From assembly GCA_038058635.1 (NCBI GenBank), contig JBBUAP010000004.1, positions 97,196-158,783 on the forward strand: a DNA stretch of 61,588 bases, given 5' to 3'. Below, piece by piece: positions 24,340 to 47,117 of the stretch. The translations under genes and the position numbers were made by a program. Within the stretch, counting starts at the first letter, position 1. Each line of letters starts with the position of its first letter. The stretch comes from Patescibacteria group bacterium (lineage in GTDB: Bacteria; Patescibacteriota; UBA1384; 2-12-FULL-50-11). Below the pieces are notes generated by a model, which saw only the letters and a program-made list of their open reading frames with translations, searched no databases and had not been told where the DNA came from.

Positions 24340-24341
24340 CA

Positions 24342-25904: not shown

Positions 25905-25965
25905 AATGAGATTGTCGATTGAGACGATCTGGTCAAAGTCACCCTCATGCAGTAATAATCTTTTT

Positions 25966-26400
25966 ATGGAGAACTTTCCTCAACAACTCCTGGGTGGAGT
26001 ACCAATTACCCAGAAAACTTATGATTTTTACAGAACCCTTCATCTTCAGGTGCAGCGTTTTCCGAAGATTGAGCGTTATGCTACCGGTCAAACTCTCCAG
26101 AACGAGACCCTAGGCTTGCTAAAGTGTCTGCTGGCCGCCTGCCAAACTTCCGGGTCAGTTAAGGCCGGCCACCTAAGTGACGCCAGTCTCCAGCTCGAAA
26201 CGGTCAAGGTTTTTGTCCGGTTGGCATATGACGTTCGCGCCCTAGATCGACGGGCTTACATTCTCTTGCAAGAATTCTTGCAAGAGATCGGCCGGATGCT
26301 CGGCGGCTGGATCAAGTCGACCCAAAAGTCAAACTCCGAACAGTCAAGTACGAGCAAGCAAAATCTCAGCGACAAAGCTGAGACTGAGCTTATTGAATGA
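25966..26400 (+). CDS. Avd-like four-helix-bundle accessory protein, on the opposite strand to RT/TR/VR
   Basis: KTYDFYRTLHLQVQRFPKIERYATGQTL ... LQEIGRMLGGWIKS is the typical Avd / 23S-IVS four-helix-bundle pattern. I prefer the start at MENFPQQ. Confidence 0.75.
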   Translation: MENFPQQLLGGVPITQKTYDFYRTLHLQVQRFPKIERYATGQTLQNETLGLLKCLLAACQTSGSVKAGHLSDASLQLETVKVFVRLAYDVRALDRRAYILLQEFLQEIGRMLGGWIKSTQKSNSEQSSTSKQNLSDKAETELIE

Positions 26401-26504
26401 TCTGCATGCGCAAATCTTCCCTGCCAACAGATAGTTGGCTGTGAATCATCTGCCCCTGCAGCTGTTCTTCGCCAGCATAGCTGACTATGAATAGTGTGAG
26501 ATTT

Positions 26505-26619
26505 CGGGAGAAGGAGACGCCCAGGTTGTCGTTCGAGTTGTCCGGGTTATCGTTGTCGACGTTCAGGCCGTTGGAGTTGAAGTTGCCAGCATAGACCAAG
26601 TTGCCGTCAGATGAACGCT
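26505..26619 (-). repeat. DGR template repeat (TR)
   Basis: 115 bp colinear with the VR. All 14 differences are A (coding-strand sense) in TR against non-A in VR. Confidence 0.9.
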
Positions 26620-26948
26620 CCTTTGCGTTTCCCCAATCAAATCAACGGCACGATGCACTAAGAAGTAGAGACCGTGCCTGTATAACAATGTGGCGGCAGG
26701 CAAAGCTTCTTTGCCACCCGCGCTAGGAAAACGCAAGCAATCTATTAACTACCCCACACGCTCTAGGTGTGAGGGGAGTGTCAGTTCACTCCATTCGGCC
26801 GGAGTGCGTCCGTAAACGCACTCTCAATGGCAGTTGGATTTTAGCAGTTTTTAGGCGCACTGAATAGGGGTAGGGAGGCATTTTCCAAAATTTCGCTCGA
26901 GTCGGCTTCGCCGACACCCCAGTAAACCAAGGATCCAAGGGCCAAGGT

Positions 26949-32010: not shown

Positions 32011-33363
32011 TTACTGCGGTTTCGTTATATCTTTAATATTGGATTCGTTCATTCTCCACAAGCCGCCTTCTCGTATTAATGTCCAGGTGCCTTCAAACTC
32101 TCCAGTTTTCCATTCCCAGGTTTCTATATTACGCTCAGTGGCGTAAAAGTGAGCGTTAATGACGTTTGGTTTATCGCTTAACTCAACCGATACCAGGCGA
32201 ATGAAAATGGTTTGTTCCAGGCCTTTGGACCAGTTATCGTAAGGCAGTCTGGCTTTACGGCTTGAGGAGTAAAAGTTGTTGTAGGCGCCTAGAATATCCC
32301 CTCCTCCGAGGGTGGTGTAGTACTTAGCAACGACTTCAGCTTGTTCGGATGGGTAACTGAGCTTGATCTCTTGCGGAGTTGCACCCTCGGCCGTTTTAAT
32401 CATCGTCTGGATGCGATCATTGAGCTGGGAGTACTCAATGGCAAAACCGGCGTTTTCTTGCCCCTGCAGTGTCTGGGTGTTCATACCGACGACTTTGCCG
32501 CAGATATCGACCAGTGGACCACCTGAATTGCCCGGAATAATAGAGGCATCAGTTTGGATGAAACTACGATCGTCGTAGTCGTCTAGTGTCAGAGCCGAAA
32601 CAATGCCTTTGGAGATCGTTAGATTCCGACCAAGCGGATAACCGATGGCATAGACTTCGTCGATCGGAATAACTGGTCTTGTGGCTCCGGTAAGAAAGGG
32701 CATGTCGCTATAGTTTGTTATTTTGATCAGAGCGATATCACGCAGAGAGTCGGTAGCAACGACCCTAGCACCGGAGGCAAGGTCTTGATTGCCAAGATAA
32801 ATTTTGGTGATCGGGTTGTGATCAACGACATGATTATTGGTGACAATAAAATTCTTCTCAACAAAGAAACCACTACCAACACCTTCCTCGCCCTCAATTA
32901 GTACGACTGAATCAGAGGCGGTTTGAACATCTGCTTGGCCGCATTTTAGTTCGTAGTCGAGTTTGCCGGTACGATAACCGTTCCAGTACCAAAGAAGAGC
33001 TACGTTAAGAATGAGCGACGCCAAAATGCTAAGTCGCACAACCCATTTACCAGTAAATAATCCGCCTCTCCATAGCCGCTTTATGATCCTAGCGGCTCGG
33101 CGATATGTCTCAGAGCTAGCAATAGTTTTTACGAATCGATTTTCGGTTAGTCTGCCGGAATGGTGCATCGCGTCCTGTCGTTGTGCGTGAATGAAACCTC
33201 TGTAGGCCAGAAATAAAACGAGAATAACTGCACCAATAGTCCCGATAATACTTGGAGCAAATAGTATGATCGCAGCTATTACCAAGATCCATAATAGTCC
33301 GCGTAGGAATCTACGGAAATTAGCCGACATAGGTTTAGTTAGCTTGCTTACAAATTTCTTCAT
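32011..33363 (-). CDS. Membrane-anchored trypsin-like (S1) serine protease with an extra C-terminal domain
   Basis: N-terminal TM helices. The triad context is VTNNHVV / DIALIKI / GNSGGPLVD. Confidence 0.8.
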   Translation of the reverse strand: MKKFVSKLTKPMSANFRRFLRGLLWILVIAAIILFAPSIIGTIGAVILVLFLAYRGFIHAQRQDAMHHSGRLTENRFVKTIASSETYRRAARIIKRLWRGGLFTGKWVVRLSILASLILNVALLWYWNGYRTGKLDYELKCGQADVQTASDSVVLIEGEEGVGSGFFVEKNFIVTNNHVVDHNPITKIYLGNQDLASGARVVATDSLRDIALIKITNYSDMPFLTGATRPVIPIDEVYAIGYPLGRNLTISKGIVSALTLDDYDDRSFIQTDASIIPGNSGGPLVDICGKVVGMNTQTLQGQENAGFAIEYSQLNDRIQTMIKTAEGATPQEIKLSYPSEQAEVVAKYYTTLGGGDILGAYNNFYSSSRKARLPYDNWSKGLEQTIFIRLVSVELSDKPNVINAHFYATERNIETWEWKTGEFEGTWTLIREGGLWRMNESNIKDITKPQ

Positions 33364-34822
33364 ATATTTTCACCATAGCTAATGTATCGAGTTTGCAGTA
33401 CTCACAAAGGTTGTGGAAGAGAGCCTCTTTATCGATATCTTCCTTGCCTTCCAACACCGCCTGCATCCATAGACGTTGAGCAGTTGCGCCGTCACTGACA
33501 TCTAAATCGGTATATTTTAGATCGGGTATTAAAGTCGGCAATACTTTCTTAATAGATGCGCTTCCCATAAAGCCCTTATCTCTAAACCAGCCTTCGGAAA
33601 ACGGTATCATTAAATCTACGATTCGCTCGTTTACGCTCTCCATAAAACCTGCTTGTTCTGGAACGATTTCGCCCAGTAATTTATTACAGCCCTTCTCAAA
33701 AGTTTCGTACCAAACAAGTACCGTCCCCTTATTGCCAATGTCTGCCTTTAGTTGTTTTATTAATGGCTCTGCAGGGTTGGTTTTATCCAGATGTAAATAT
33801 TCTTTGTGCGAAAGCTTTCCATCTGGTTTATCTAATATATGTAATGAATACTGGAACGGCAGCTGGCTGTAAGGCTTTAATCCATCGTAAGGTGGAACCG
33901 TCGAGCTAAGCGTTTCGTAGTCAAAAAAGTAAAGCGGATACTCCAAGCCTTCCAAAAACTTTTTGATGTTGTGTTTACTAACATACCGCTTCCCAGTCTT
34001 GTTGGTTTCTACTTGCCAGCGTTGTTTTGGTTTTAATACAAACTCGTCCGGAATATCTTTGATCTTTTCGATAAGCAGATCTTCTAACTGCCCGATAACC
34101 GCGCTTGGTGTTGCTAGGTTGTAGATACTGTCCTTTTCAAGCGGACCAACCAGACTTTTGTAAATATCTAGCCACTCACTAAAAGCGCCCATCTTGGCGT
34201 AGCGTGGCGAAATATTCGGAATTTCTGGAGAATCTATAGTTTGGAACGCTTGCTGTATGTTCTGCTCGGTAGCTTTTTCCAACGCTCGTACTTCTTTTGT
34301 GATGTCAGTGATCGCCGCAAATTTATTAACGTCTATAACGCCATCTTTAACGAATTGGTTGTTAACGTGTATCACCGAAATATTTCGTACTTTAAGCCCG
34401 GCTTTTTCTAACACTCTTGTCTGAAACGCTAGGTCGTGTTCGTGCTCTGGCTTGGCTTTGGTACTGGCCTTAATCTCGAATAGATCGAAAGTATCTCCCT
34501 CTACTCTTTTGATCACGTCCACAATACAAGTAATGTTTTCAGTTTCGAAACGTCCCTGGAAAATTGTATCTGCTCCGTCTGCCAAAACTTGTTTTGTCCG
34601 CTCCGGCATAGATATATATGTACTGAAATCTCCTTTATCAAACCCAATTCGTATTCCATCTGGGAATATCTGTTCTGCGTATTCTTCAAACAGGTTTCCA
34701 CTGTCGAATATTGCTTGCGTGTTTGCGTCTACTGCCGGTAACTTGCTTTTGTCGTGCTTCTTAAGCCAGAGCCAAGCGGGGTGTTTGAGAAAAAGAAGAT
34801 ACTCACTTTTCGAGAGAGTCAT
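33335..34822 (-). CDS. DUF2779-like (RecB/Cas4-type PD-(D/E)XK nuclease-like) protein
   Basis: N-terminal LSKSEYLLFLKHPAWLWLKK is typical of DUF2779. DLFEIKAST is a nuclease-like core. Confidence 0.6.
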   Translation of the reverse strand: MTLSKSEYLLFLKHPAWLWLKKHDKSKLPAVDANTQAIFDSGNLFEEYAEQIFPDGIRIGFDKGDFSTYISMPERTKQVLADGADTIFQGRFETENITCIVDVIKRVEGDTFDLFEIKASTKAKPEHEHDLAFQTRVLEKAGLKVRNISVIHVNNQFVKDGVIDVNKFAAITDITKEVRALEKATEQNIQQAFQTIDSPEIPNISPRYAKMGAFSEWLDIYKSLVGPLEKDSIYNLATPSAVIGQLEDLLIEKIKDIPDEFVLKPKQRWQVETNKTGKRYVSKHNIKKFLEGLEYPLYFFDYETLSSTVPPYDGLKPYSQLPFQYSLHILDKPDGKLSHKEYLHLDKTNPAEPLIKQLKADIGNKGTVLVWYETFEKGCNKLLGEIVPEQAGFMESVNERIVDLMIPFSEGWFRDKGFMGSASIKKVLPTLIPDLKYTDLDVSDGATAQRLWMQAVLEGKEDIDKEALFHNLCEYCKLDTLAMVKIYEEICKQAN

Positions 34823-35464
34823 CTAAAGACCTCTCCGTTCTTCTTCTGTTTTTGCTCTTTTTTCGATAGACCACTCTTTATTGATCGTGACCAGATTCTC
34901 TTGCAGGTCGGGAAGCAGCGGGTTATCAACCCACGCTTCTGCTAGCTTGGCGATTAACCGCTGGTAGCGTAATAGTTGTTGCTCTTTGGGTTGATTAAAC
35001 CTTAAGAAAGTTTTTTCGCCTTCCCTCTGGTAGTCTTGGATTTGTTCGCTCATGTTGTGCAAGACGTCGGCAGATTTCACTAACAACGAGTCTGGCAACA
35101 TGCTTGATATGTGCTCTAGGGCCAGCCGCTTTCGTTCTTCCCACGGCAGACTCTTATCTTGTTCGGTAACGTCATTAACAATACGAGCAACTTCCTTCCC
35201 AAACTCCTTCACCAAATAGTCTTCAGTTAATTCTGTGTCTTCAAGAACATCGTGTAATATTCCCGCAACGATAATATCTTCAGTCGCCCCGGTCCTTGCC
35301 AAAATTAAGCCAACGCTTAGTAAGTGGGTAATATACGGCACATTCTTACCTTTTCGCGTTTGACCGTCGTGAGCAACGATGGCTACCTCAATAGCTTTCT
35401 GTATCGCCGGAGGATAAACTGATCCGTTTAGACTTAATTTCCGGAAGCTATCTTCAGTCTTCAT
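34823..35464 (-). CDS. HD-domain (p)ppGpp hydrolase-like protein (SpoT/RelA hydrolase type)
   Basis: AHDGQTRKGKNVPYITHLLSV ... AGILHDVLEDT. Confidence 0.75.
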   Translation of the reverse strand: MKTEDSFRKLSLNGSVYPPAIQKAIEVAIVAHDGQTRKGKNVPYITHLLSVGLILARTGATEDIIVAGILHDVLEDTELTEDYLVKEFGKEVARIVNDVTEQDKSLPWEERKRLALEHISSMLPDSLLVKSADVLHNMSEQIQDYQREGEKTFLRFNQPKEQQLLRYQRLIAKLAEAWVDNPLLPDLQENLVTINKEWSIEKRAKTEEERRGL

Positions 35465-35621
35465 CACGCGTCATATGTTTGCGCATCTGCGAGCGGATCA
35501 ACATCGTTTTGTCATCAGCAATATCAATTTCTCCGCATTTAGGACATGCATTATCTGTGCAAACAGGACAAAACGTTTCTTGACACTTCTTGCACTCTAC
35601 TGACATGAATTGGTGTGGCAT
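35454..35621 (-). CDS. 55-aa Zn-ribbon protein (not in the ORF track)
   Basis: My own translation is MPHQFMSVECKKCQETFCPVCTDNACPKCGEIDIADDK..., with three CxxC pairs. GGGAG lies 4 nt upstream, right after the hsdR stop, and the ORF overlaps the HD gene start. Confidence 0.45.
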   Translation of the reverse strand: MPHQFMSVECKKCQETFCPVCTDNACPKCGEIDIADDKTMLIRSQMRKHMTRDED

Positions 35622-35629
35622 TTTGCTCC

Positions 35630-38458
35630 CTATACCCCCTCGATAAACGTTTCTATGAAAGTATTAAACTTGGTCATCAGCCGCTTTACGACTGACTCCC
35701 GCTCAAGAATTTTTGGTTGAGTTGTTAGCGTCCCAACCAAATCGTTGCCACGTGGTTTGCGGCCGCTATACAAATAGTTATCAATTAAGCCCTGCAACTT
35801 TTCGGTCATGAGCCCCTCTTCGTTACACATCCGTTCAAATGCCTTGGTCTTTTCGTCACTCCAAAACTCTTCGAATTTAGTCTCCACTTCTTCCGAATCA
35901 GTAATCTTGGGAATGGTTTGCTTAATAAACTTCTCAATCAATTCCTTTTTACTACGTAATCTGTCATCGGCCGACATCACATTGAAAATATTGTTCAGAA
36001 TAGACTTTTTAGCATCTTCGGTGGCGTCAATAAGCCGTGCCAACAGTCGAATAATATAATCGACATTGATCTCATCTCGTCTTACTAGCTCCAGCTCAAA
36101 ATCCACATCATCCAAGATCGAGACTTTCTCTTTTTCGTGTTCGCTTCGAACTTTATCGTAAATGTCTAGATACTTACTGCGGAAGTCGACAAATGCTTGG
36201 GCCGAGATTGTAGTATCTTCGATTTTAAAATCGGTGAAGGTGATTAAGATGTTTCTCAGTCTCAATAGCTCCCGGAAATTGGTCACAAATTTTAGTTCTT
36301 GTTCTTCACCAACTAACAGATCAACGTCGGCCGGTGTTGGTGTCAGCTCACGAAGTTGCGCAATAGCTTCATTAAATTTCTCCACGTATTTCTCGTACGG
36401 CTCCATAAAGATTATTTCTTGGGCGTCTTTGTTACTAAACAGTGCGATCGCGTCGTCGGTTGCTTTCTTCAGATTGCGAAACACCACAATATTGCCTTGC
36501 GATTTACGCTCGTCGAGGATCCGATTGGTTCGCGAATACGCCTGCAGTAAGCCGTGATAACGCAAGCTCTTATCCACATACATTGTATTTAGCGTTTTGC
36601 TATCAAAGCCGGTCAAAAACATATTAACCACTAACAGAATATCTACTTGTCGTTTTCTAACCTTATCGGCCACGTCCCTGTAATAGTTGTAGAAACTGCC
36701 GCTATCCTTGGTAGTAAAGTTTGTTCCGAACTGTTCGTTGTAGTCAGCGATATAACTCTCCAGCCTGTCTCTTGAGTGTTGGTTGAGTTTACTGAACAAG
36801 CTCAACTGGATGTCCTCATCTAGCAGCCCGTTAGCGTATTTATCTTCTTCGTTGGCGCCGTAGCTAAATATCGTAGCGATCCTTAGCTTGCTCTCACTCC
36901 CAACTTGCTTGGCTTTAAAAATTTCGTAGTACTTTGTTAATATGTCCACACTTCCGACCGCAAAAATTGCGTTGAACTCCCGTGAATGGGTCTTGCGATC
37001 GTGATTAGCTAAAATATACTCGACAATCTTCTCCAACCTTTTCGGCGACTCCATTAGTTCTTTGATGTCAATCGCCTCCACTTCGATATCAACCTCGTTG
37101 GTAGTTTCCTTCTGGCGATACCGACCAACGTACTCAACCGAAAACTTCAACACATTTTCGTCATTGATAGCGTCGGTAATTACATACTTATGCAGACACT
37201 CACCAAACAAGTCGTGAGTGGTTCGTCGACCCAAAGCGTTACCGCTGGCATTTTCGGCAAATATTGGTGTACCGGTAAAGCCAAAAAGCTGATGGTTGGT
37301 AAAGAACTCAACAATTCGCTTATGGATCTCACCAAACTGACTGCGATGACATTCGTCAAAAATAAAGACAACTTTTTGATTACGGTGTTTATCCATCTTC
37401 AACAAATGCCGTTCGTTAGTAATGGCGTTGTTGAGCTTCTGGATAGTGGTAACGATTAGCTTGCTGTCTGGGTTACCAAACTGTTTTACCAATTGTCGGG
37501 TGTTATCTGTTTGGTCAACGCAATCTTCCTCAAAATTATTGAATTCGCGGATGGTTTGGGTATCTAAGTCGTTGCGGTCAACCACAAATACAACTTTGTA
37601 GATTTCCGGCAAGTCCACCAATATCTGGCTGGCCTTAAACGAAGTCAGTGTCTTTCCGCTACCGGTAGTGTGCCAGATGTAGCTGCCTTTAGTACTATTT
37701 TTAACTCGGTCAATTATCGCCTCAACGGCGTAGTACTGATACGGCCGCAGAATCATTAGTGTTTTGGTCTCGGCCAGAACGGTGTAGTTAGCAATCATCT
37801 TGGAAATGTGGCAGCGCTCCAAGAATGCTTCAGAGAACTTCGCTAAATCAGTAATTTTATTATTTTCTTTGTCGGCCCAGAACGAAGTGAATTTGAACGA
37901 TTGCCGGTGGTTATTGGAGTAGTATTTGGTATTAACACCGTTAGAAATTACAAAAATTTGGATGTATTGAAACAGTCCGTAGCTGGCGTCGTAACTATGG
38001 CGTTGGTAGCGGTTGGTCTGATTGAACGCTTCTTTGAGTTCCAGCCCACGGCGTTTTAACTCGATCTGTACCAATGGCAAGCCGTTAATTAGAATCGTCA
38101 CATCATAGCGGTTCTTGAAACTACCCTCATTTGAAACCTGGTTAGTAACCTGGAATTCGTTCTGACACCACTCGCGGCTATTAAAGAATTCAACATAATA
38201 ATTCGTGCCGTCATCACGGATCAGTCGCATTGTGTCGCGCAAGGTTTTAGCTTTATCAAAAACATTGCCCTTGGCGAGGTGGTTTAGGATTTTCTGAAAT
38301 TCCCCTTCGCTGAAAGCTGTCTCGTTATGTTTCTCGAGCTGGAATTTCAAGTTCGCTATCAGTTCTTTCTCGTCAGCCACAACCACCCGCTCATACTTCA
38401 TTTTTTGAAGCTGGGCGATGAGATTATTCTCTAAAGTTTGTTCGGATTGGATTTTCAT
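35630..38458 (-). CDS. hsdR: Type I restriction enzyme R subunit
   Basis: N-terminal nuclease region plus SF2 helicase motifs (HTTGSGKT, FDECHRSQ) and an HsdR C-terminal domain. Confidence 0.9.
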   Translation of the reverse strand: MKIQSEQTLENNLIAQLQKMKYERVVVADEKELIANLKFQLEKHNETAFSEGEFQKILNHLAKGNVFDKAKTLRDTMRLIRDDGTNYYVEFFNSREWCQNEFQVTNQVSNEGSFKNRYDVTILINGLPLVQIELKRRGLELKEAFNQTNRYQRHSYDASYGLFQYIQIFVISNGVNTKYYSNNHRQSFKFTSFWADKENNKITDLAKFSEAFLERCHISKMIANYTVLAETKTLMILRPYQYYAVEAIIDRVKNSTKGSYIWHTTGSGKTLTSFKASQILVDLPEIYKVVFVVDRNDLDTQTIREFNNFEEDCVDQTDNTRQLVKQFGNPDSKLIVTTIQKLNNAITNERHLLKMDKHRNQKVVFIFDECHRSQFGEIHKRIVEFFTNHQLFGFTGTPIFAENASGNALGRRTTHDLFGECLHKYVITDAINDENVLKFSVEYVGRYRQKETTNEVDIEVEAIDIKELMESPKRLEKIVEYILANHDRKTHSREFNAIFAVGSVDILTKYYEIFKAKQVGSESKLRIATIFSYGANEEDKYANGLLDEDIQLSLFSKLNQHSRDRLESYIADYNEQFGTNFTTKDSGSFYNYYRDVADKVRKRQVDILLVVNMFLTGFDSKTLNTMYVDKSLRYHGLLQAYSRTNRILDERKSQGNIVVFRNLKKATDDAIALFSNKDAQEIIFMEPYEKYVEKFNEAIAQLRELTPTPADVDLLVGEEQELKFVTNFRELLRLRNILITFTDFKIEDTTISAQAFVDFRSKYLDIYDKVRSEHEKEKVSILDDVDFELELVRRDEINVDYIIRLLARLIDATEDAKKSILNNIFNVMSADDRLRSKKELIEKFIKQTIPKITDSEEVETKFEEFWSDEKTKAFERMCNEEGLMTEKLQGLIDNYLYSGRKPRGNDLVGTLTTQPKILERESVVKRLMTKFNTFIETFIEGV

Positions 38459-40116
38459 ATGACTTCGTAATTGTCTTTGCCGATTGAATTGATGAAACAG
38501 GATGTTGGCTTGTCCTTGGTGTTTATCAGGTAAAGGCGTTTCTTTGTTCGTGTCAGCGCGACCAGCATCTGGTAAATTTCGCTCTCGTCCGGAGCGGAAG
38601 TAGTAGGGAGCTTCCCCTGGTCGAATCCTATTAAAAATACGACATCTGCCCCAAGCCCTTTGGATAAAAGTATACTCGTAACTGCGATCTCTAGATTCGC
38701 TAACGGACGTGGGAGGTGGTTAGTCTCTTCTCTTAACTGATTGGTTAGTATTTCCCTATAGTCCAACCTACTGCTGGAGATTAACCCTTCAAGCGAAGCT
38801 ATCGAGCTGTTAGCAATTTTAGTTCTCTCAGATTTAGATTTTTTAGTTAAACCGTTATGTGTTGTGGCAATTTTTTCTGACGTTTTTTTGAAATCCTCTG
38901 GGATAGAATTGATAAAGTTTTGCTTCTCATCTAATGATATCAATATGAGACTTTTTCGAGTTTCCTCGTCCAAGCTCTCTATCATCAATCGCCAAGCCAA
39001 TGTACTCAAAGGACTTTTCTTGAGCAGTTTAAGTCCCTCGATAATATTTGTCTTTAGCTTATAAACGTCATCTGTGAGTTTAGGATTATCGACATGTTTA
39101 AATCCTTTATATCTAAGCTGTTCTGCGATCACGGGGAGTAGATACTTGCACGTCCTAGCTTCGCCAATTACCAATACGGACTTAATCTTCTGACGCTCAA
39201 GAAGCTCGCTCAATTGATGAATAATCTTATTTGCAATGTCCGCAGGAACAACATTTTGCAAAAGAATGATACTGGGGTTCGCCTCGTTATCTTCTTTTTT
39301 CCCGGGAGTGTAGCACAAATATTCTTTTTTTATTCTTTCGTTGCCCAAGTTATTCAGTCCATATGCGTTTGCAATGCGGTGGAATGCGTTAATAATCACA
39401 TCTGTGCAACGAGAACAGAATCTGAGCGTAGTACTTAAATACTCTTCACCCGTAGCCTTATATTTTTCCCGAATAAACTTTGAAAACGAACCCTTGAAGT
39501 CGTAGAGCGCTTGGTCGTCATCTCCTACGATTAATATATTATTCTTTGTTGCTAGCAAGTCGATGAACTTGTCTTCAGTCTCATTCAGGTCTTGATACTC
39601 ATCAACTAAAATTAGATCATAGTCCGACGGAATCTTTTCTGGGAACTTTTCACCAAGCTTCAAAGCGTAGTGAATCGCATCCTTGTCTCCGATTGCCTTG
39701 TAGTAATTGCTCCTCGCTAGATATTCCTTGCTGTCTATTGAAACGTCCCGTAATCCCTGTAACGAGAGGTCGTAAGCAATTACATCATAGATCTGAGGGA
39801 AATATATCCAGCCTTCGCCAAGGAGATCTATCACAAACTTACGTGCGAAGCTGTGTATTGTCCTGGTTTCAGCCAGACCCGCTAGGTCATCAGCAAGCTC
39901 ATCGCATAATTTTCCCATGAAGGTAAGCGCGAGGAACTTTGACTTTCCTTCTTTTTTCTCTTTCCGTATCACTCTTTCAAACAAAAAGCTTTTTCCTGTA
40001 CCGGGTCCAGCGACGACAACCCTTTTTTTATGAACTGAGTTAAGAACCTTAGAGAGATCGTTCTGCCTTTCGGTTTCATGGTCGATTGGCGTCGTCACTA
40101 GCGATTCCGTCGTCAT
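38455..40116 (-). CDS. UvrD/Rep-like SF1 helicase-family ATPase embedded between hsdS and hsdR
   Basis: VVVAGPGTGKS, ILVDEYQDLN, VGDDDQALYDFKG, VVFLIGF and LVALTRTKKRLYLI. ATGA-type 4-nt overlaps occur at both ends. Confidence 0.75.
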   Translation of the reverse strand: MTTESLVTTPIDHETERQNDLSKVLNSVHKKRVVVAGPGTGKSFLFERVIRKEKKEGKSKFLALTFMGKLCDELADDLAGLAETRTIHSFARKFVIDLLGEGWIYFPQIYDVIAYDLSLQGLRDVSIDSKEYLARSNYYKAIGDKDAIHYALKLGEKFPEKIPSDYDLILVDEYQDLNETEDKFIDLLATKNNILIVGDDDQALYDFKGSFSKFIREKYKATGEEYLSTTLRFCSRCTDVIINAFHRIANAYGLNNLGNERIKKEYLCYTPGKKEDNEANPSIILLQNVVPADIANKIIHQLSELLERQKIKSVLVIGEARTCKYLLPVIAEQLRYKGFKHVDNPKLTDDVYKLKTNIIEGLKLLKKSPLSTLAWRLMIESLDEETRKSLILISLDEKQNFINSIPEDFKKTSEKIATTHNGLTKKSKSERTKIANSSIASLEGLISSSRLDYREILTNQLREETNHLPRPLANLEIAVTSILLSKGLGADVVFLIGFDQGKLPTTSAPDESEIYQMLVALTRTKKRLYLINTKDKPTSCFINSIGKDNYEVI

Positions 40117-41291
40117 ACAAACATCTGCTGGAGGAGGGCTTTTTTAAAACGCTTGGCTTGCTCCAGTTTACTTTCTTCTAGCTTGATTTTGTCATCGAGC
40201 GCTGTTAGAAATCCTGAGATTGCCACCTGCTCCATTAGGATGGGTAATAGTACTACTAACTTCAATAAACTACCCCTCTGGATGTTTGGTAATCCTGAGC
40301 CAACTCTCAATCGCATTATTTTCAACTGATAAAATTTCAGCTGTTGGTATAGAAAGGCTTTTTCAACATCAGGGCTCGGCTGGATTGTATAGCAGTGTCC
40401 ACCACTCCAAAACCTCTCAGTTAAATAGCCTACAAATCCACAAGAATTTCCACCTTCGCTTATAGTTATAGTATTTGCCTCCTCATTGAACTTGTCGGTG
40501 TAGCCTGAGGGTCCAATGCCTCCGTTAATCATAGGGTATTTCCCAGTTCTCGTTAGTTCAGATCCGTTCAGTTGAGCTCCCTTCGTTATCATTGCAATAT
40601 TCCCCAGTTTCTTTTCTTCCCAATCTGGGAAAGAATTACCACCTTCGTCCTTGAAGCGGAGTTTTTGGGAAAAGATGGCTTGCATCACCCCTTTTTTGTA
40701 CTTTTTCAGCAGGTCGATTCGTGTCCGCACAAGCTCAATCTTCTCGTCCACCGTAACAAGAAAGCTTCCAACCTTGCTTTGTTCGGCGATACCCGGGAGA
40801 CAAAGAGGGAAAGAGTTGAGGCGTTCTTTCGTTATTGTTTTAAGAGTTCCTCCTGGCGCCTTAACTTTCTCCCGTTCAAACAGCAAATAAACAGCACTGA
40901 TGAAGTAATCGATGTCCACGGGAAGAGTAAAGGAGTTAAACAATAGCAACGTCCTATCTACGTACGCGTCATATTGGGTTTTTGCAATTCGCCCGATTGA
41001 ACCCTGGATGGTTAATACAATCGACCCCTTCTTTACAAATACACTTAGATTTTGTGCAGCTTGGCTAATTTTTCGTTTCGTCGTCTCCTTCAGTTTTAAG
41101 TCAGCACCCACATCAAACACCTGAATGAATGGACTGCCATGTTCGTCGTCATACCATTTTGCGAGACCGTAAGGTTGGGGGAAGCTACCGCGTCTGTACT
41201 TTGCAACGTCGCTTAACTTGTGTTCCTGCCACTCACCACGAAACTCAGGAAACCGCAATTCAGGGGTTCTACTTTTTACTGTTTTTTGCAT
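40113..41291 (-). CDS. hsdS: Type I restriction enzyme S (specificity) subunit
   Basis: Two target-recognition domains separated by conserved helices (LPEFRGEW...; ...LEQAKRFKKALLQQMF). Confidence 0.85.
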   Translation of the reverse strand: MQKTVKSRTPELRFPEFRGEWQEHKLSDVAKYRRGSFPQPYGLAKWYDDEHGSPFIQVFDVGADLKLKETTKRKISQAAQNLSVFVKKGSIVLTIQGSIGRIAKTQYDAYVDRTLLLFNSFTLPVDIDYFISAVYLLFEREKVKAPGGTLKTITKERLNSFPLCLPGIAEQSKVGSFLVTVDEKIELVRTRIDLLKKYKKGVMQAIFSQKLRFKDEGGNSFPDWEEKKLGNIAMITKGAQLNGSELTRTGKYPMINGGIGPSGYTDKFNEEANTITISEGGNSCGFVGYLTERFWSGGHCYTIQPSPDVEKAFLYQQLKFYQLKIMRLRVGSGLPNIQRGSLLKLVVLLPILMEQVAISGFLTALDDKIKLEESKLEQAKRFKKALLQQMFV

Positions 41292-41883
41292 TATTATTTG
41301 CGTTTATTTGCTGTCTAAATTGTGCTATTCTGTATCCGCTGATATTTAGAATTAAAGCTATTTCGGAAGAAGTTCTTCCCTCCTTGATTAGTTGATCAAC
41401 TAACTCGAGGCGCTTCTGCTTAATGAAATATTCTTTGGTCCTGTAGTATTTCGGAAAGTCACTCCATCCTTGCATCTCCGACCACAGAGATGGGATAAAA
41501 TATGGTTCAACCAATTTAGGACCCGCAAATTGACCGTAGCCAAGTAACGTTGCTACTGCCTTTAGTAGTATTATCAGTAAACCTTTCAGGTCGTTTGGAA
41601 TCGACTTGAGAAGTGTTATTTCACTTTTTAGATAACTAAGTTGGTAGCACAGATAGTCGACGAACTTTTCGCTAGCTTGGATCTTTTTTACTTCAGCGAT
41701 AAGTTTGTCGATTAGTTTTAGTATTTGTTTGCGGAAGTAGTTGTCCGAATTGAATGCCGAGGCCATACCATGATAACCTCCATTCTCACCGAACACCGAA
41801 GTGAAGAAATGCTCCGCCATGATCCCGCTGAAGTAAGTTGATTGGGGGGTTTTATCGTTTTTACTATAAACAATCTTATCCAT
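41269..41883 (-). CDS. Hypothetical protein with a C-terminal HTH, embedded in the hsd operon
   Basis: 204 aa with a GRTSSEIALILNISGYRIAQFRQ HTH-like tail. Overlaps the hsdS start by 23 nt. Confidence 0.5.
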   Translation of the reverse strand: MDKIVYSKNDKTPQSTYFSGIMAEHFFTSVFGENGGYHGMASAFNSDNYFRKQILKLIDKLIAEVKKIQASEKFVDYLCYQLSYLKSEITLLKSIPNDLKGLLIILLKAVATLLGYGQFAGPKLVEPYFIPSLWSEMQGWSDFPKYYRTKEYFIKQKRLELVDQLIKEGRTSSEIALILNISGYRIAQFRQQINANNNAKNSKK

Positions 41884-41901
41884 GTAGTTAGTTCGGCAAG
41901 A

Positions 41902-42738
41902 CTATGCCGAGCCCTTCCTAATCAACTCGTCCATCGTTTTATTTTGGGCGTTCGTGAAAGTTAACCATGCATTAACACTCCTGCCGGTCGCGAAACTACC
42001 AGCATGATTTGGGCTTCTGAAGGGGACATTTTCAGTTAATTCAACAGTCTCACCTAAATCTTTACCGTATTTTCGGAATACTTCTTCCCGCTCTGCTAAA
42101 GACTTCGGCCATTCCTTACCCCAACTGGGTGCGTAACTCTTATCTATAAGTGACCCAACCAGAATAACGAATTTATCACCACGAAATTGCGCTTTGATAT
42201 CTGACTTTTTCGCCACACAATACCAAATATCTTCAGCTTTATCCTGTTTGGTTGAAAAAATGCTATAGCCAAGTGATTCTGCAATAAGTGCCACATCATC
42301 AAGAATTCTCTGCAAGCTATGGGTCTTAAATTCGTGCACATTATTACGAGCAGGAACAGTTTTATTAAGTATTTCCATCGCTGCTGACCCCTTAGCTTTT
42401 TCAACCGCTAGCGATTCCAGATACTTAACATCGCTCTTCTCCAAGTGGTTGGCGTTAGAGACAATAGCTAGCGCAATATCCCATAAGCCGGTGAGTTTGT
42501 CGTGGGTTTTAATTCGGTCGTAGAAGTTCTCACTCTCGCCAATATAGAGCTGGTTGTCTCCGGAGTTTATAAGTAAATACAAAGCTGGCTGCCTAAGCTC
42601 GTTGCGCTCCGTAGCATTATTAAGTTTAATTCTGGGAATAACTACTCCCTTGATTTGGCTATCCGATAACTCGATGATTCTCAAGCCCTCAAGGGTTCCG
42701 TCTGGCAAGTATGTTTGGATTAAGCGTGGAGTATTCAT
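41902..42738 (-). CDS. GIY-YIG-like / DUF4357-type protein embedded between hsdM and hsdS
   Basis: LYLLINSGDNQLYIGESENFYDRIKTH is GIY-YIG-like. The C-terminal FRSPNHAGSFATGRSVNAWLTF is DUF4357-like. The gene starts 1 nt after the hsdM stop. Confidence 0.6.
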   Translation of the reverse strand: MNTPRLIQTYLPDGTLEGLRIIELSDSQIKGVVIPRIKLNNATERNELRQPALYLLINSGDNQLYIGESENFYDRIKTHDKLTGLWDIALAIVSNANHLEKSDVKYLESLAVEKAKGSAAMEILNKTVPARNNVHEFKTHSLQRILDDVALIAESLGYSIFSTKQDKAEDIWYCVAKKSDIKAQFRGDKFVILVGSLIDKSYAPSWGKEWPKSLAEREEVFRKYGKDLGETVELTENVPFRSPNHAGSFATGRSVNAWLTFTNAQNKTMDELIRKGSA

Positions 42739-44295
42739 TTAAAATGGTCTATCTATACCAAGCTCCTTGGTAAATTTTTCAATTTTGGAGTTGATTTCCG
42801 ACTCTTGAGTGGTAATTTTTTTGATTTCGGTCGAGACTTCTTTAAGATCGATCTGCTCCTCCTCTTCAAACGTATCGACATATCGTGGGATGTTGAGGTT
42901 GTAATCGTTCTCTTTAATTTCCTCGATTTTGGCGACGTGGCTGTATTTATCTTCGTTCTTTCTGGCCTGATAGGTTTGGATAATTTTATCGATATCTTGA
43001 GCACGTAAATAGTTCTTGTTGCCACGTTTCTCAAAATTTTTTGAGCTGTCGATGAATAAAACATCGTCAGGGTGTTCCCGACATTTTTTAAACACCAAAA
43101 TGCATGCCGAGATTGACGTACCGTAAAATAGGTTTGGGGGCAAACCGATAACGGCATCGAGGTAATTCTTATCTTTAATTACGTACTTCCGTATTTGAGC
43201 TTCTGCGTTGCTATGGAAAAGGGAGCCATTAGACATTACCGTAGCCATGGTGCCGTTGTCGTCTAGCTGGTAGATCATGTGCGTGATAAAGGTATAGTCG
43301 GCACAAGATTTTGGTGCTAATCTACCATACTGACTGAAACGATCCTCTTGCAGGTGGTGCGCATCAGCTGACCAGTCTGAACCAAACGGCGGATTAGCCA
43401 CGATAGCTTCGAACCTGTGTTCTAGGTGTTGCGGATGCTCGAGTGTGTCTTCTTGTTTAATATCAAATCGGTCAAAACGAACATCGTGCAATATCATATT
43501 CATTCGCGCCAAGTTGTAGGTAGTGTTATTTAGTTCTTGACCGTAGAAGTGATCAACATCTTGAACGTGTCGGGCGACTCGAAGTAGTAGCGAACCCGAG
43601 CCGCAAGTGGGGTCGTAAACACTCTTGAGACGTTTTTTGCCGTCCGTAACAATACTTGCCAAAACTTCAGAGACTTCTTGCGGAGTGTAAAATTCACCGG
43701 CTTTTTTGCCTGCCCCAGCCGCAAACTGACCGATTAGGTACTCATAGGCATCACCAAGGACATCAACCTTGGCGTCCTCGAGCTTGAAGTCGATTTTGTC
43801 GAGATGTAACAGGACTTTTGAAATAAGCTTATTTCGGTCGGCAACCGATCTACCAAGTTTAGCGGCGTTGAGATCGATTTCGCTGAAAAGTTTGTCAAAA
43901 TCATCTTCACTGTCGGCACCCATGGTGCTGTGCTCGATGTTGTTAAGAATGCGCTCCAGTTCTTCAATGAGGTTTTTTGAGGTTGGGCTTTGGATGGCAA
44001 TTTGATGAAACAGTTCGCTTGGCTTGAGAAAGTACCCAAGAGTATCTATGGCTGCCTGCTTAACAGCGGTAACCATCTTCGCGTCTTTATCGGTTAACTC
44101 ATTCAGTTCTGCGTACTTTACGCCATCGGCCTTTAGCAACTTATCGGCAAACAGCTCTACCTTTTCAGAAAGGTATTTATAGAAGATGAAGCCTAGGATA
44201 TAGTCGCGAAATTGACCAGCATCCATATTCCCACGCAACTCATTGGCAATATTCCAAAGTTGAGTTTGAAGCTGTTTCTTTTGCTCGTCAGACAT
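42739..44295 (-). CDS. hsdM: Type I restriction enzyme M subunit (N6-adenine methyltransferase)
   Basis: HsdM N-terminal domain, DPTCGSGSLL (motif I) and IVANPPFG (motif IV). Confidence 0.9.
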   Translation of the reverse strand: MSDEQKKQLQTQLWNIANELRGNMDAGQFRDYILGFIFYKYLSEKVELFADKLLKADGVKYAELNELTDKDAKMVTAVKQAAIDTLGYFLKPSELFHQIAIQSPTSKNLIEELERILNNIEHSTMGADSEDDFDKLFSEIDLNAAKLGRSVADRNKLISKVLLHLDKIDFKLEDAKVDVLGDAYEYLIGQFAAGAGKKAGEFYTPQEVSEVLASIVTDGKKRLKSVYDPTCGSGSLLLRVARHVQDVDHFYGQELNNTTYNLARMNMILHDVRFDRFDIKQEDTLEHPQHLEHRFEAIVANPPFGSDWSADAHHLQEDRFSQYGRLAPKSCADYTFITHMIYQLDDNGTMATVMSNGSLFHSNAEAQIRKYVIKDKNYLDAVIGLPPNLFYGTSISACILVFKKCREHPDDVLFIDSSKNFEKRGNKNYLRAQDIDKIIQTYQARKNEDKYSHVAKIEEIKENDYNLNIPRYVDTFEEEEQIDLKEVSTEIKKITTQESEINSKIEKFTKELGIDRPF

Positions 44296-44336
44296 TACCC
44301 AAATTGTACTGCTAAACAGGTTGGATTCATAGCAAA
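44260..44336 (-). repeat. Copy A of the ~77-bp repeat (native hsdM 5' end plus leader)
   Basis: Aligns at a constant offset of 1565 bp with 45825-45901. The first ~50 bp differ at 3 positions. Confidence 0.8.
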
Positions 44337-44357
44337 AATCGTCCGTTCCACTAGCAA

Positions 44358-44645
44358 CTACCGCTTGATCTTTTCTTCAATCTCTAGCTCAGCCCTATTT
44401 AGAATGTTCTCTATCACCCAATATTTAAATTTCCCTATATCAAAATATGTGTATTGCTTGGAGTAAAATTCTTTTGTGTAGCCATTATTACTTATGAAGA
44501 TATTGAATTCATCAAATAGTTTTTTGTCATTTTCTGATAAGTTGTCTCTCACAATATAATAGTGAGGTATCTCGGCCATTGTTTTGGCAAAGACCCATTT
44601 ATTGTTGTCAATGAATTGTTTGAATCTGATTTCGTCGTTATTCAC
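44358..44645 (-). CDS. Hypothetical 95-aa protein
   Basis: ORF directly downstream of the 368-aa nuclease-like gene. No family recognised. Confidence 0.45.
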   Translation of the reverse strand: MNNDEIRFKQFIDNNKWVFAKTMAEIPHYYIVRDNLSENDKKLFDEFNIFISNNGYTKEFYSKQYTYFDIGKFKYWVIENILNRAELEIEEKIKR

Positions 44646-44658
44646 GATATGTTAATTC

Positions 44659-45765
44659 CTAATTCTCGGACGTCAGTGTCTCCTTAATCCAAGAACAGAT
44701 TAAGAAAAATTCACGGCGAGCATCATCTTTGGCGAGTGCACGAAGAGGTAATTTCAATCCGCTGTATCCATCGATATTATCTAAATCAACTATTGCGCCC
44801 GTAACTGATTGCAATCGTTGTAACAACTCCACTCGTTTTTCGGGCCTATCAAATGGTTGCGGGCTTTTGTTCCGTTGATGGGGAGCATTCCATGAAATCA
44901 TCGCGTCACCTGTCACCGCAAATGGATAAAATCCCTTTTTATCGTCAGTATTAAAACCAATAACAAAAGAACCCATTTGGTTTGTCATCCAATAAATTTC
45001 ACAATTATTTTTCCCAGCCCATTCAATAATTTGCTCGGCGGCAAATACTTCTTCTTCCCCGAAATCTTTCAAGCGTTGTTTGAATAATTCCCAATTCCAC
45101 AACTTTCCTGGCATCTTGTTAGTTTTTACGTCTTTTTTAACTTCAACACCAAACAATTTTGGAATCATTATTTCGTACTTTTCGAATTTATAATATTCCA
45201 TTTGGACGGCATAAATATCAAATTGGCTATTTTGGTTGATATAAACAATTAAGTCTTTCAGTCTGTCTTCTATCCCATCCATCAAAACTACAAATTTAAT
45301 GTTGCCTTGTTGAAGATTTCTTTTTATAGCTTCAAAGATTAAGTCACTTTGTTCTTCGTCGATCTCAAAAAACTCTCTTGTTTTTTCCTCGAAGCTGAGT
45401 TTGAATTTATTATTTATTTCATAATTTATTTTATTCATAAATTCGTTGCAATCGCTATGTCGCCAAAGAGAAGCACCATAATCAAGAGCTTGGGCGACCA
45501 CCGTCCTTTTATCGGGGTTTCTATATAATTTTGTTTCAACAACATAAATATCACCGTCTTTATCGATAGCCAATGCGTCAATCGGACCGGATTCGGTTGA
45601 GAATTCTCTTGCTACCACAAAAAGTTTTTTGTCATCTTCTATTTCGTAAACGGGGATCGACTCTGGGTTTTCATGGATATAATTTTGTAGATAACCTTCT
45701 TTTTCGAAGACAGATTTATCTATTTTTTGCGCTTTTTTGCCGTCTTGTGAAATAATAATCGCCAT
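44659..45765 (-). CDS. PD-(D/E)XK nuclease-like protein
   Basis: GPIDALAIDKDGDIYVVETKLYRNPDKR gives the D...E-x-K core. Confidence 0.5.
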   Translation of the reverse strand: MAIIISQDGKKAQKIDKSVFEKEGYLQNYIHENPESIPVYEIEDDKKLFVVAREFSTESGPIDALAIDKDGDIYVVETKLYRNPDKRTVVAQALDYGASLWRHSDCNEFMNKINYEINNKFKLSFEEKTREFFEIDEEQSDLIFEAIKRNLQQGNIKFVVLMDGIEDRLKDLIVYINQNSQFDIYAVQMEYYKFEKYEIMIPKLFGVEVKKDVKTNKMPGKLWNWELFKQRLKDFGEEEVFAAEQIIEWAGKNNCEIYWMTNQMGSFVIGFNTDDKKGFYPFAVTGDAMISWNAPHQRNKSPQPFDRPEKRVELLQRLQSVTGAIVDLDNIDGYSGLKLPLRALAKDDARREFFLICSWIKETLTSEN

Positions 45766-45824
45766 AGTTTCTAACTCTTTATATCGTCAAGGCTGGCTCT
45801 AAGTGTTTTGGAGTGATTCCACGA

Positions 45825-45901
45825 TTGAGTTTGGAGCTGTTTCTTTTGATCGTCAGACATTACCCAAAGTGTACTCCTTATATGGTTAGTTTCATAGCAA
45901 A
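45825..45901 (-). repeat. Copy B of the ~77-bp repeat (orphan hsdM 5' end: ATG 45860 plus ~12 conserved codons)
   Basis: The remnant reads MSDDQKKQLQTQ..., against hsdM MSDEQKKQLQTQ..., then diverges and stops at 45771. Confidence 0.8.
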
Positions 45902-46010: not shown

Positions 46011-47117
46011 TTAAGCGTTTTTGAGTAGTTTTATGTATTCTGGGCAAACGTAAAGAAACCGATTTCTCTTCGGTTGTTTCTTTTTGACTATAACTTGCTC
46101 TTTTTCAAGAATTGCTAAGTACTTACGGGCGGTAACATAAGCGACCTTAAGACCACTTTCGAAGTCCTTTTGGACAAAGTAGGGGTTTAGGTAGAGTAGC
46201 TTTGCGATGTCCCGAGCGTAAGCATGACCAACCAGTTTTTCAAGCTTTTCCTCAAGCTCCTGTTGGAAGTCGTGTATCTTCTGTAGAACTTTAAGGGTGT
46301 ACTTAGCTTGTTTCTCGAGAGCTTTAAGTATGTATAAAACCCATGGCTTCCACTCGCCTTTGTAAGTGACGTTACGAAGCAGGAGGTAGTAGTCGTCCCT
46401 ATTTTCAAGGATAAACTTACTGACAAATAAGAGTGGCAGGTGTAGCGCCCTTTGCTTTGAAAGGTATAGGGGGATAAGCATCCGGCCAGTTCGACCGTTA
46501 CCGTCATGGAATGGGTGGATCGCTTCAAATTGATAGTGTAAAACAGCCGCACGACCAAAAATCTCGTGTTCGGGAGCTTTTTCGTTGAAGTACTTCTCGT
46601 AGTTAGACAACAGTTCCCGGATTAGACCCTCACCTTCGGGCGGCGTGTAGTAGACTACGCCAGTGTGAGGATTCTTCAATTGAGTGCCCGGAAGCTTACG
46701 AATGCCAGACTTCGTTGGCTCTAGCGTCTTCTGAATGGCGATGTATTGGTTGGTGGCAAGAAAGTCTTTCTCGACTAACTCTTTGAAGCCAAAAATTAGA
46801 GCAGCGGTGTAACGCATTACTTCTTTTTCGTGAGGTTTTATCTCGCCTGCTTCCAAGATCTTGGCTTGGTAGATGCGCTCATTAGTAGTGATGATATTTT
46901 CTATTCCAGAGCTTGCCACCGCCTCCGGAACGTACAGGGGAGACATTAGATTCAGACTATGGGTTATATTTTGCTTGTCGGCTCCAAGAATTGTATTCAA
47001 AGAACCGATTGCTTGAGAGGTCGCGATTGAGGCGATAAGAATATCGGGGTCCTTAAAGTCTAGATCAGGCGCCGGAACACCGGCTAGATCGTTGAAGGGT
47101 TTGTTTGGGTTTGCCAT
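46011..47117 (-). CDS. Fic/DOC-family protein
   Basis: Canonical HPFHDGNGRTGR motif with a C-terminal wHTH-like tail. Confidence 0.85.
   Translation of the reverse strand: MANPNKPFNDLAGVPAPDLDFKDPDILIASIATSQAIGSLNTILGADKQNITHSLNLMSPLYVPEAVASSGIENIITTNERIYQAKILEAGEIKPHEKEVMRYTAALIFGFKELVEKDFLATNQYIAIQKTLEPTKSGIRKLPGTQLKNPHTGVVYYTPPEGEGLIRELLSNYEKYFNEKAPEHEIFGRAAVLHYQFEAIHPFHDGNGRTGRMLIPLYLSKQRALHLPLLFVSKFILENRDDYYLLLRNVTYKGEWKPWVLYILKALEKQAKYTLKVLQKIHDFQQELEEKLEKLVGHAYARDIAKLLYLNPYFVQKDFESGLKVAYVTARKYLAILEKEQVIVKKKQPKRNRFLYVCPEYIKLLKNA

Follow-up and report, generated by a model that had tools for sequence, protein, structure and literature searches.

The embedding of extra genes in restriction-modification (R-M) operons is an accepted route to new immune systems. 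In the EcoprrI locus, the gene order is hsdM-hsdS-prrC-hsdR, where PrrC is an anticodon nuclease. PrrC is hardly ever found outside such an embedded position (Payne et al. 2024, bioRxiv 10.1101/2024.01.29.577857), and the same study used the genes nested within BREX, DISARM, and type I R-M systems to derive 145 untested candidates, PDC-S14 among them. TgvAB, a type IV, GmrSD-like system, lies inside the type I R-M system of the Vibrio cholerae pathogenicity island VPI-2 (PMC11411939), and DarTG2 with RptR lies inside that of enteropathogenic Escherichia coli (EPEC) (PMC12255303). Here, we analyzed a type I R-M operon with embedded genes in a stretch of 61,588 nucleotides (nt) of a Patescibacteria group bacterium (assembly GCA_038058635.1, contig JBBUAP010000004.1; the whole stretch is referred to below as the window). 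The source of the window is a groundwater metagenome.

With moderate confidence, we propose that this operon is a type IC-like R-M scaffold in the cargo of an integrative conjugative element (ICE), that self-contained defense genes have been recombined into it at gene borders, and that one of them, a helicase, acts in trans with a nuclease of the DUF2779 family. Embedding in R-M operons as such is already known from PrrC, TgvAB, DarTG2, and the candidates of Payne et al., and PDC-S14 is catalogued. New here are the recurrent embedding of the helicase family in type I operons, a rare family represented by a 204-amino-acid (aa) protein, the evidence for slot exchange, and a possible helicase-DUF2779 module.

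The operon and a sister operon

An open reading frame (ORF) scan showed that six co-directional minus-strand ORFs fill positions 35630-44295, encoding in order HsdM, a 278-aa protein, the 204-aa protein, HsdS, a 553-aa protein, and HsdR (Table 1). In that order, the junctions measure 0 (TAA then ATG), +18, -23, -4 (ATGA), and -4 (ATGA) nt. The six-gene order on a single strand, with its overlaps and gaps, had been described in a first-pass annotation of the same DNA, and both the scan and the junction arithmetic reproduced it. The bounds given there delimit the six genes correctly but not the packed array, which spans approximately 33335-45901 rather than ending at 35630 and 44295. Upstream, the array is extended by a 95-aa ORF, a 368-aa ORF, and a duplicated hsdM leader at 45816-45901; downstream, it is extended by a 55-aa Zn-ribbon ORF, an HD protein, and the DUF2779 nuclease, to 33335. 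It perhaps continues through a trypsin-like gene to 32011. An outside gene caller preferred shorter starts, reading the 204-aa gene from Met40 (165 aa) and hsdS from 11 codons later. However, residues S15, M22, E24, F31, and G32, which precede Met40, are conserved among homologs of the 204-aa protein, and the alignment of HsdS to the PADLOC HsdS models begins at residue 1. The long forms of both genes, together with the 23-nt overlap, therefore stand.

HsdM matched N6_Mtase (PF02384) at 1e-109 and TIGR00497 with 460 bits against a cut-off of 243, and it contains NPPF at residue 301. HsdS showed Methylase_S (PF01420) in two stretches and a full-length match to the PADLOC Specificity_I models. 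HsdR is composed of HSDR_N, SWI2_SNF2, T1R_D3, and EcoR124_C, with the motifs D119...E133-x-K135, GSGKT, and DECH intact. Judged by these domains and motifs, the R-M system is complete, and it is called type IC-like because HsdR carries the four domains listed. The predicted enzyme, HsdM2S1R2, would methylate host DNA and cut unmodified incoming DNA.

The evidence for cargo exchange derives from a sister operon, designated L091. Its products are identical to those of the window at 86% (HsdM), 84% (the 278-aa protein, which is PDC-S14), 92% (HsdR), 64% (the small Zn-ribbon ORF), and 35% (HsdS) of aa positions. In HsdS, the target-recognition domains differ, and the conserved regions alone are common to both. 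Between the PDC-S14 gene and hsdS, where the window has the 204-aa gene, L091 has a gene for a 280-aa KilA-N protein (PDC-S22, 3.5e-124). Between hsdS and hsdR, where the window has the helicase gene, it encodes a 479-aa AAA_15 ABC ATPase with AriA/NsnB-like matches (8244-9683). Nucleotide homology between the two operons (blastn, 77-81%) covers window positions 44310-41902, 40753-40592, 40214-40115, and 38452-35424 and ends at the borders of cargo genes and, within hsdS, at the target-recognition domains. After the common block, the window continues with the HD and DUF2779 genes, and L091 continues with a gene for a 232-aa PDDEXK_1 nuclease (12670-13368). Because the breaks fall at gene borders, the slots behave as exchange sites, and the operon is, on the alignment of these two sequences, a scaffold with exchangeable cargo and at least three exchange points.

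Two further features of the pair were observed. In both operons, a motor protein occupies the hsdS-hsdR slot and a nuclease follows hsdR, such that motor and nuclease straddle hsdR. The 55-aa CxxC ORF is kept in L091 (12516-12680), inside the common DNA block, and may be a small partner protein, hitherto unrecognized, of this type IC lineage.

At the 5' end of the operon, an 86-nt direct repeat was found at 44251-44336 and 45816-45901 (85% identical), corresponding to the hsdM leader and the first ~45 nt of hsdM. It brackets a 1,565-bp segment containing the 368-aa and 95-aa ORFs, and its upstream copy, a nonfunctional hsdM start, reaches a stop after 29 codons. This repeat looks like the recombination scar of a cargo insertion.

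The embedded helicase and the DUF2779 nuclease

The 553-aa protein is a superfamily 1A (SF1A) helicase with the four-subdomain fold of this group. Intact Walker A and B motifs and motif VI had been noted at first pass, and motifs I, II, III, and VI were found here (GPGTGKS, DEYQD, VGDDDQ, and TRTK, all invariant in the family). An AlphaFold 2 (AF2) model (predicted local distance difference test score, pLDDT, 89.9; predicted template modeling score, pTM, 0.84) superposes over its whole length on UvrD, PcrA, and Rep, and Foldseek yielded a template modeling (TM) score of 0.69 against UvrD of both D. radiodurans and E. coli. A hidden nuclease domain was rejected since the model aligns to UvrD/PcrA/Rep throughout and has no extra domain; the earlier remark that no nuclease domain could be recognized was thus borne out by structure prediction and Foldseek. 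An apparent excess of length in distant relatives reflects over-long ORF starts, not domain fusions. Against the NCBIfam equivalogs for UvrD, Rep, PcrA, and helicase IV, the protein scored 53-57 bits, with cut-offs of 543-1168, and by this standard it is not orthologous to a named housekeeping helicase. An assignment to GajB was likewise rejected: the PADLOC match is partial (110 bits, three stretches), the TM score is 0.37, and the array contains no GajA. None of the PDC or HEC models in PADLOC 2.0 matched the helicase, making the family a candidate that is absent from that collection yet enriched beside type I genes, as described below.

The family comprises 1,638 matches. Identity across the full length of ~545 aa is 45-55% for the best 120; many of these 120 come from candidate-phyla-radiation bacteria, and the relatives are mostly from uncultivated bacteria. 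Within the family, C234-x2-C237 and C323 do not vary, H246 hardly does, and C155, C268, and C480 each occur in most members. The conserved Cys/His residues suggest a family-specific metal site. To our knowledge, the CxxC...C pattern does not occur in UvrD, Rep, or PcrA. One locus of the family was detected in 2.9 million viral contigs and none in 72,556 plasmids, and the E. coli genomes contained no relative of the operon or of the helicase.

A survey of how often the inserts co-occur with hsd genes had been proposed with the first-pass annotation. A first genome-wide scan with an alignment of the whole helicase was swamped by generic UvrD motifs and yielded ~12 true relatives; its generic loci became the controls. 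Family loci comprised 68 metagenome loci fetched by a family-specific sub-alignment (CSRC motif), the true relatives from the genome scan, and individual homolog look-ups. After mechanical ORF calling, iterated hidden Markov models (HMMs) served to detect hsdM, hsdS, and hsdR, and helicases were clustered at 90% identity. This resulted in 36 nonredundant close-family loci, 16 of them informative (at least two genes on each side), and 66 nonredundant generic UvrD-like loci, 54 of them informative. A clear type I system was present within four genes in 5 of the 16 close-family loci compared to 0 of the 54 controls (Fisher p = 3.6e-4), so that the helicase family proved to be enriched beside hsd genes. 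Any hsd- or N6-methyltransferase-like neighbor was found in 9/16 (one being a UvrB false positive) and 0/54, respectively. The most common Pfam families among the 100 neighbors within two genes were N6_Mtase, Methylase_S, and Eco57I (8 each), followed by HsdM_N (5).

The position of the helicase gene was also recurrent. It lies directly upstream of hsdS in seven of eight type I-embedded loci (L112, L114, L115, L118, L120, L127, and L130), and in L116 one gene separates the two. The helicase stands between hsdS and hsdR in the window only, the usual arrangement elsewhere being hsdM-helicase-hsdS. The first-pass description of a helicase in the slot of prrC is therefore correct for the window but does not extend to the family as a rule. 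Genes co-embedded with the helicase elsewhere encode RhuM (PDC-S05), Bro-N (PDC-S13), Abi_alpha (PDC-S47), a PD-T7-5-like protein, and unknown families. Other loci bring different company. In L169 (3783-8689), the helicase follows a 1024-aa N6_Mtase/MmeI_Mtase/Type_ISP_C protein; full type ISP enzymes also have a helicase-nuclease half, which this protein presumably lacks. In L171 (7001-9825), the helicase gene overlaps the gene of a Shedu-type SduA_C nuclease by 4 nt; in L083, it adjoins those of an Eco57I-type enzyme and a DUF3644 HEPN protein; and at one further locus, the surrounding island encodes an Mrr-type enzyme as well as a GmrSD-HNH protein. A lone copy lies between uvrB and thrS. 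Separately, genes for YgjP-like metallopeptidases were seen near helicase-bearing type I operons in five loci (L114, L115, L117, L124, and L127) and genes for RadC-like JAB proteins in four (L118, L124, L155, and L158).

These neighborhoods bear on an alternative in which the helicase is an accessory motor of ATP-dependent N6-adenine R-M systems (type I and ISP/IIG), either processing their double-strand breaks in place of RecBCD/AddAB or stripping stalled HsdR (restriction alleviation). It is a serious rival because the ATGA overlaps tie the helicase to hsdS and hsdR and because the association with such R-M systems is broad: the helicase directly precedes hsdS in all but one of the eight type I-embedded loci, type ISP/IIG-like methyltransferases adjoin it in L169 (Type_ISP_C), L083 (Eco57I), L005, and L157, and R-M components dominate the neighbor census. 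Even so, we consider it unlikely. No clear type I system lies within four genes in 11 of the 16 informative close-family loci, the copy between uvrB and thrS stands alone, the sister operon does without the helicase, whose slot is taken there by an unrelated ABC ATPase, and type I systems in general do not need such a factor.

The DUF2779 protein, which lies outside the six-gene interval, combines two nuclease domains. Its N-terminal part is a Cas4/RecB-like PD-(D/E)xK nuclease with an intact D113-x2-E-x-K motif, and its C-terminal part is an RNase H-like (DEDD-type) 3'-5' exonuclease with FDYET, FQYSLH, and CKLDTLAM intact. In the literature, DUF2779 is described as a fusion of an RNase H-like 3'-5' exonuclease to a PD-(D/E)xK (Cas4-like) domain and, more recently, as a "solo Cas4" immunity candidate (PMC3985635, PMC13621843). 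A DUF2779 neighbor was present in 5/39 close-family helicase loci and 0/66 controls (p = 0.006). The gene is located directly downstream of the helicase gene in L103, L109, and L122 (gaps of 15-100 nt), and a Woesebacteria locus has a homolog four called ORFs downstream of it. The window itself completes the five. L109 contains the closest relative of both the window helicase (53% identity) and the window DUF2779 protein (51%). On plasmids of cultured bacteria, DUF2779 genes occur in defense-like clusters beside other ATPases/helicases. This recurrent adjacency is suggestive of a helicase-DUF2779 partnership and makes the DUF2779 protein a candidate answer to the puzzle of the missing nuclease.

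We also put forward, tentatively and as a somewhat unlikely extension, that the CxxC UvrD-like helicase and DUF2779 form an undescribed two-gene defense module lodged in type I and type ISP loci and layered with R-M, with the 204-aa HTH (helix-turn-helix) protein as an operon-internal regulator. Such a module would act on R-M cleavage products or on R-M-resistant DNA.

Other cargo and the setting of the operon

The 278-aa protein had been labeled GIY-YIG/DUF4357-like, and both the PADLOC profile and the pattern of invariant residues agree with this. It is a full-length match to PDC-S14 (PDLC04925, 2.2e-61; residues 1-273 against model positions 13-295 of 301). Its Pfam GIY-YIG score of 23.4 bits is just over the gathering score, whereas its DUF4357 score of 26.5 bits is below the cut-off of 38.4; DUF4357 is recorded for most homologs. 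Y54, Y65-I-G-E68, R75, and H79 are invariant across an alignment of 18 homologs. There are 288 relatives; the best 120 of the 288 are at least 63% identical, and the named ones among these 120 are largely Saccharibacteria and Patescibacteria. Three loci were found in 2.9 million viral contigs. In Candidatus Mycosynbacter, a lone PDC-S14 gene lies beside a prophage serine recombinase and a terminase gene, 4.4 kb from a type I operon. Published lists of the domains that McrB GTPases and GmrSD enzymes carry as fusions include DUF4357 (PMC11090510, PMC4619093), which is plausibly a DNA-reading module of modification-dependent restriction enzymes. Because DUF4357 is of the kind fused to McrB/GmrSD, PDC-S14 is probably a GIY-YIG endonuclease directed against DNA that type I restriction misses, e.g., modified DNA.

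For the 204-aa protein, a word-indexed search returned three homologs, and an exhaustive profile search among 1.84 billion proteins returned 90 representatives, so the family is small. Its members are ~170-250 aa and match across most of their length. In many of them, the C-terminal 40 residues correspond to a sigma-70 region 4/HTH_23/GerE (LuxR-type) HTH. The N-terminal helical domain has no Pfam family, and the whole protein has no PADLOC match. No recognized family apart from an HTH tail had been reported at first pass, and the profile searches, which gave the HTH only, concur. Structure prediction gave a pLDDT of 63.9 with no Foldseek match below E = 0.1, and profile searches of the PDB returned the HTH only. 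A divergent ECF-sigma-like architecture is a tentative lead.

The family is known from four contexts: the window, L090, and two short contigs on which no hsd gene is visible. In L090, the homolog's gene is directly upstream of hsdS and overlaps it, following hsdM and the gene of an unrelated 171-aa membrane protein. An assignment of the 204-aa protein to PDC-S14 as part of one unit was rejected, since the sister operon keeps PDC-S14 without a 204-aa gene; the different predecessor in L090 rules it out as well. We would guess that the protein, by its sigma-4/LuxR-type HTH, is a DNA-binding regulator or sensor, which appears likelier than an effector.

The operon is situated in the cargo part of a putative ICE (window 22720-61103). 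On one side, the element has tRNA-Ala (22738-22813) and a serine recombinase gene (22720-24342); on the other, at 47.7-61.1 kb, it encodes a replication-relaxation protein (Replic_Relax), a type IV coupling protein (T4CP), a type IV secretion system (T4SS) pilin, and a VirB4/TraG-like ATPase, together with a second serine recombinase (59700-61103). The GC content is ~0.41-0.44 over 33-46 kb compared to ~0.48 elsewhere in the window. Since most homologs of two cargo genes derive from Patescibacteria, the host may belong to the candidate phyla radiation. Directly upstream of the array, a full-length SoFic (Fic-domain) defense gene was found at 46011-47117 (PADLOC, 4e-88). The defense reading adopted at first pass is reasonable given extra genes in a complete type I operon, a defense-rich ICE cargo zone, and the adjoining SoFic gene.

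Table 1. Positions of the array features and of the diversity-generating retroelement in the window
Feature	Position	Strand	Remarks
Duplicated hsdM leader and first ~45 nt of hsdM	45816-45901	-	85% identical; upstream edge of 1,565-bp insertion
368-aa ORF	44659-45765	-	No Pfam family; weak partial PADLOC PDC-S11 matches (2e-16)
95-aa ORF	44358-44645	-	No family; 13 nt after 368-aa ORF, 62 nt before hsdM
hsdM, 518 aa	42739-44295	-	Type I N6-adenine methyltransferase
GIY-YIG + DUF4357 protein, 278 aa	41902-42738	-	PADLOC candidate PDC-S14
204-aa protein	41269-41883	-	Helical N-terminal domain and C-terminal HTH; overlaps hsdS by 23 nt
hsdS, 392 aa	40113-41291	-	Two target-recognition domains
SF1A helicase, 553 aa	38455-40116	-	UvrD/PcrA/Rep fold; ATGA overlaps to hsdS and hsdR
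hsdR, 942 aa	35630-38458	-	Type IC-like restriction subunit
55-aa ORF	35454-35621	-	Two CxxC pairs (Zn-ribbon-like); 9 nt after hsdR
214-aa HD-domain protein (HD_4)	34823-35467	-	Overlaps 55-aa ORF; 0-nt gap to DUF2779 gene
495-aa DUF2779 protein	33335-34822	-	Cas4/RecB-like PD-(D/E)xK and RNase H-like 3'-5' exonuclease
Reverse transcriptase	24954-25904	-	Diversity-generating retroelement
bAvd	25906-26400	+	Diversity-generating retroelement
Template repeat	26500-26619		Variable repeat at 26960-27079, 88% identical

Two neighbors of the array are recorded as observations in their own right. The gene for the trypsin-like peptidase (32011-33363) shares 29 nt with the end of the DUF2779 gene, and homologs of this peptidase are encoded near the helicase in L114 (12592-14241) and L132 (2049-3593). 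Farther away, the window contains a complete diversity-generating retroelement (24954-29066). On the minus strand, 15 of its 15 template/variable repeat mismatches fall at template adenines. The variable repeat forms the last ~40 codons of the gene for a 705-aa AAA_5 (MoxR-like) protein (26949-29066), which is adjoined by the gene for a vWA-domain protein (29501-31768).

Alternative readings and comparison with described systems

Besides the accessory motor, the inserts could be guards in the manner of PrrC, i.e., latent effectors that are restrained by the R-M complex and freed when a phage inhibits it. The window helicase does occupy the slot of prrC, the sister operon has an ABC ATPase there and PrrC too contains an ABC ATPase domain (Payne et al.), and embedding guarantees co-expression with the guarded enzyme. 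Nevertheless, the helicase has no ABC ATPase, anticodon nuclease, or other toxic domain, and its usual position is hsdM-helicase-hsdS. Each of the three inserts has also been found apart from hsd genes, whereas PrrC is almost always embedded, and co-adapted protein contacts are not what one would expect where near-identical scaffolds carry different cargo. We consider this mechanism very unlikely. The composite system sensing R-M inactivation, as suggested at first pass, was not sustained either, since the inserts are not a fixed set and each is found outside hsd operons.

It is equally doubtful that the inserts serve the mobile element or repair rather than defense (as a conjugative or rolling-circle helicase, an ICE HTH regulator, and a selfish homing GIY-YIG enzyme): the locus does sit in an ICE with a relaxase-like gene, T4CP, T4SS, and serine recombinases, homing enzymes exist among GIY-YIG nucleases (the 278-aa protein weakly matches TIGR01453), UvrD-like helicases have many housekeeping roles, and serine recombinases and transposases recur near helicase loci, but viral contigs are nearly free of the helicase and PDC-S14, the helicase does not occur in the plasmids searched, the neighbors of both genes are overwhelmingly R-M/defense genes and not conjugation genes, and the helicase scores far too low for the UvrD, Rep, PcrA, and helicase IV equivalogs.

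Our preferred reading remains that of a scaffold with exchangeable, self-contained defense genes. Shared transcription, together with stop/start codon overlaps, would couple expression of the cargo to that of the R-M genes, and the cargo may act against phage. The helicase is predicted to be a UvrD-type 3'-5' DNA motor without a nuclease of its own, acting in trans with DUF2779; as an AddA/RecB-like helicase-nuclease, the two may unwind and degrade linear or nicked foreign DNA, including the fragments produced by HsdR. Several points weigh against this account. A passive passenger would not require ATGA coupling as tight as that of the helicase to both hsdS and hsdR, and such coupling fits an accessory subunit equally well. 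In the window, the DUF2779 gene is three genes downstream of the helicase, with hsdR, the 55-aa ORF, and the HD gene between them; the helicase-DUF2779 link is seen in 13% of close-family loci, and other helicase loci have different nuclease partners (SduA_C in L171, DUF3644 HEPN in L083) or none. The enrichment beside hsd genes compares different collections, the controls coming from genomes and the family loci mostly from metagenome contigs. The loci surveyed also served to build the hsd HMMs, whose matches include at least one false positive (UvrB in L088). The literature searched gave no published validation of PDC-S14, the papers that name this candidate being titled as genome descriptions or surveys of defense systems, and the role of the 204-aa protein is guesswork because its structural model is poor.

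The locus adds comparative evidence of exchange to what is known of embedding. If the helicase-DUF2779 pairing is true, it would assign a role to DUF2779, a widespread uncharacterized "solo Cas4 plus exonuclease" protein, and would hint at how lineages with few repair nucleases finish restricted DNA.

Compared to the type IC (EcoR124I) family, the window operon shares EcoR124_C and T1R_D3 in HsdR, the order hsdM...hsdS...hsdR, and HsdS target-recognition domains that vary between sister operons; it differs in being split at three internal borders and lengthened at both ends by cargo. UvrD, Rep, and PcrA, as well as AddAB, RecBCD, and AdnAB, resemble the helicase in fold and in intact helicase motifs, and a PD-(D/E)xK nuclease is encoded nearby, as in AddA/RecB. 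In contrast to UvrD, Rep, and PcrA, the helicase stays below the equivalog cut-offs and carries its family-specific CxxC...C motif, and unlike in AddAB or RecBCD, the nuclease is a separate protein that also bears a DEDD-type exonuclease. Gabija differs in the low similarity of GajB to the helicase and in its GajA, which has no counterpart here.

With PrrC in EcoprrI, the window shares an extra gene between hsdS and hsdR, presumably co-expressed with R-M. This gene, however, encodes an SF1 helicase instead of an ABC ATPase fused to an anticodon nuclease, and the helicase is confined neither to that slot nor to hsd operons. TgvAB and DarTG2 are similar in that independent defense modules reside within a type I operon, for which a complementary target range has been proposed; PDC-S14 differs in combining GIY-YIG with DUF4357, not DUF262 with DUF1524. 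RptR is a small DNA-binding regulator associated with the DarTG2 island; the 204-aa protein differs in being encoded inside the operon, and its sole family-level match is an HTH. The PDC candidates of Payne et al. also lie between hsd genes, and PDC-S14 in the window, PDC-S22 in the sister operon, and PDC-S05, S13, and S47 in other helicase-bearing operons belong to that set. The helicase and the 204-aa protein match no PDC/HEC model, and, unlike those candidates, the window operon holds three to five cargo genes, with slot-by-slot exchange seen through its sister.

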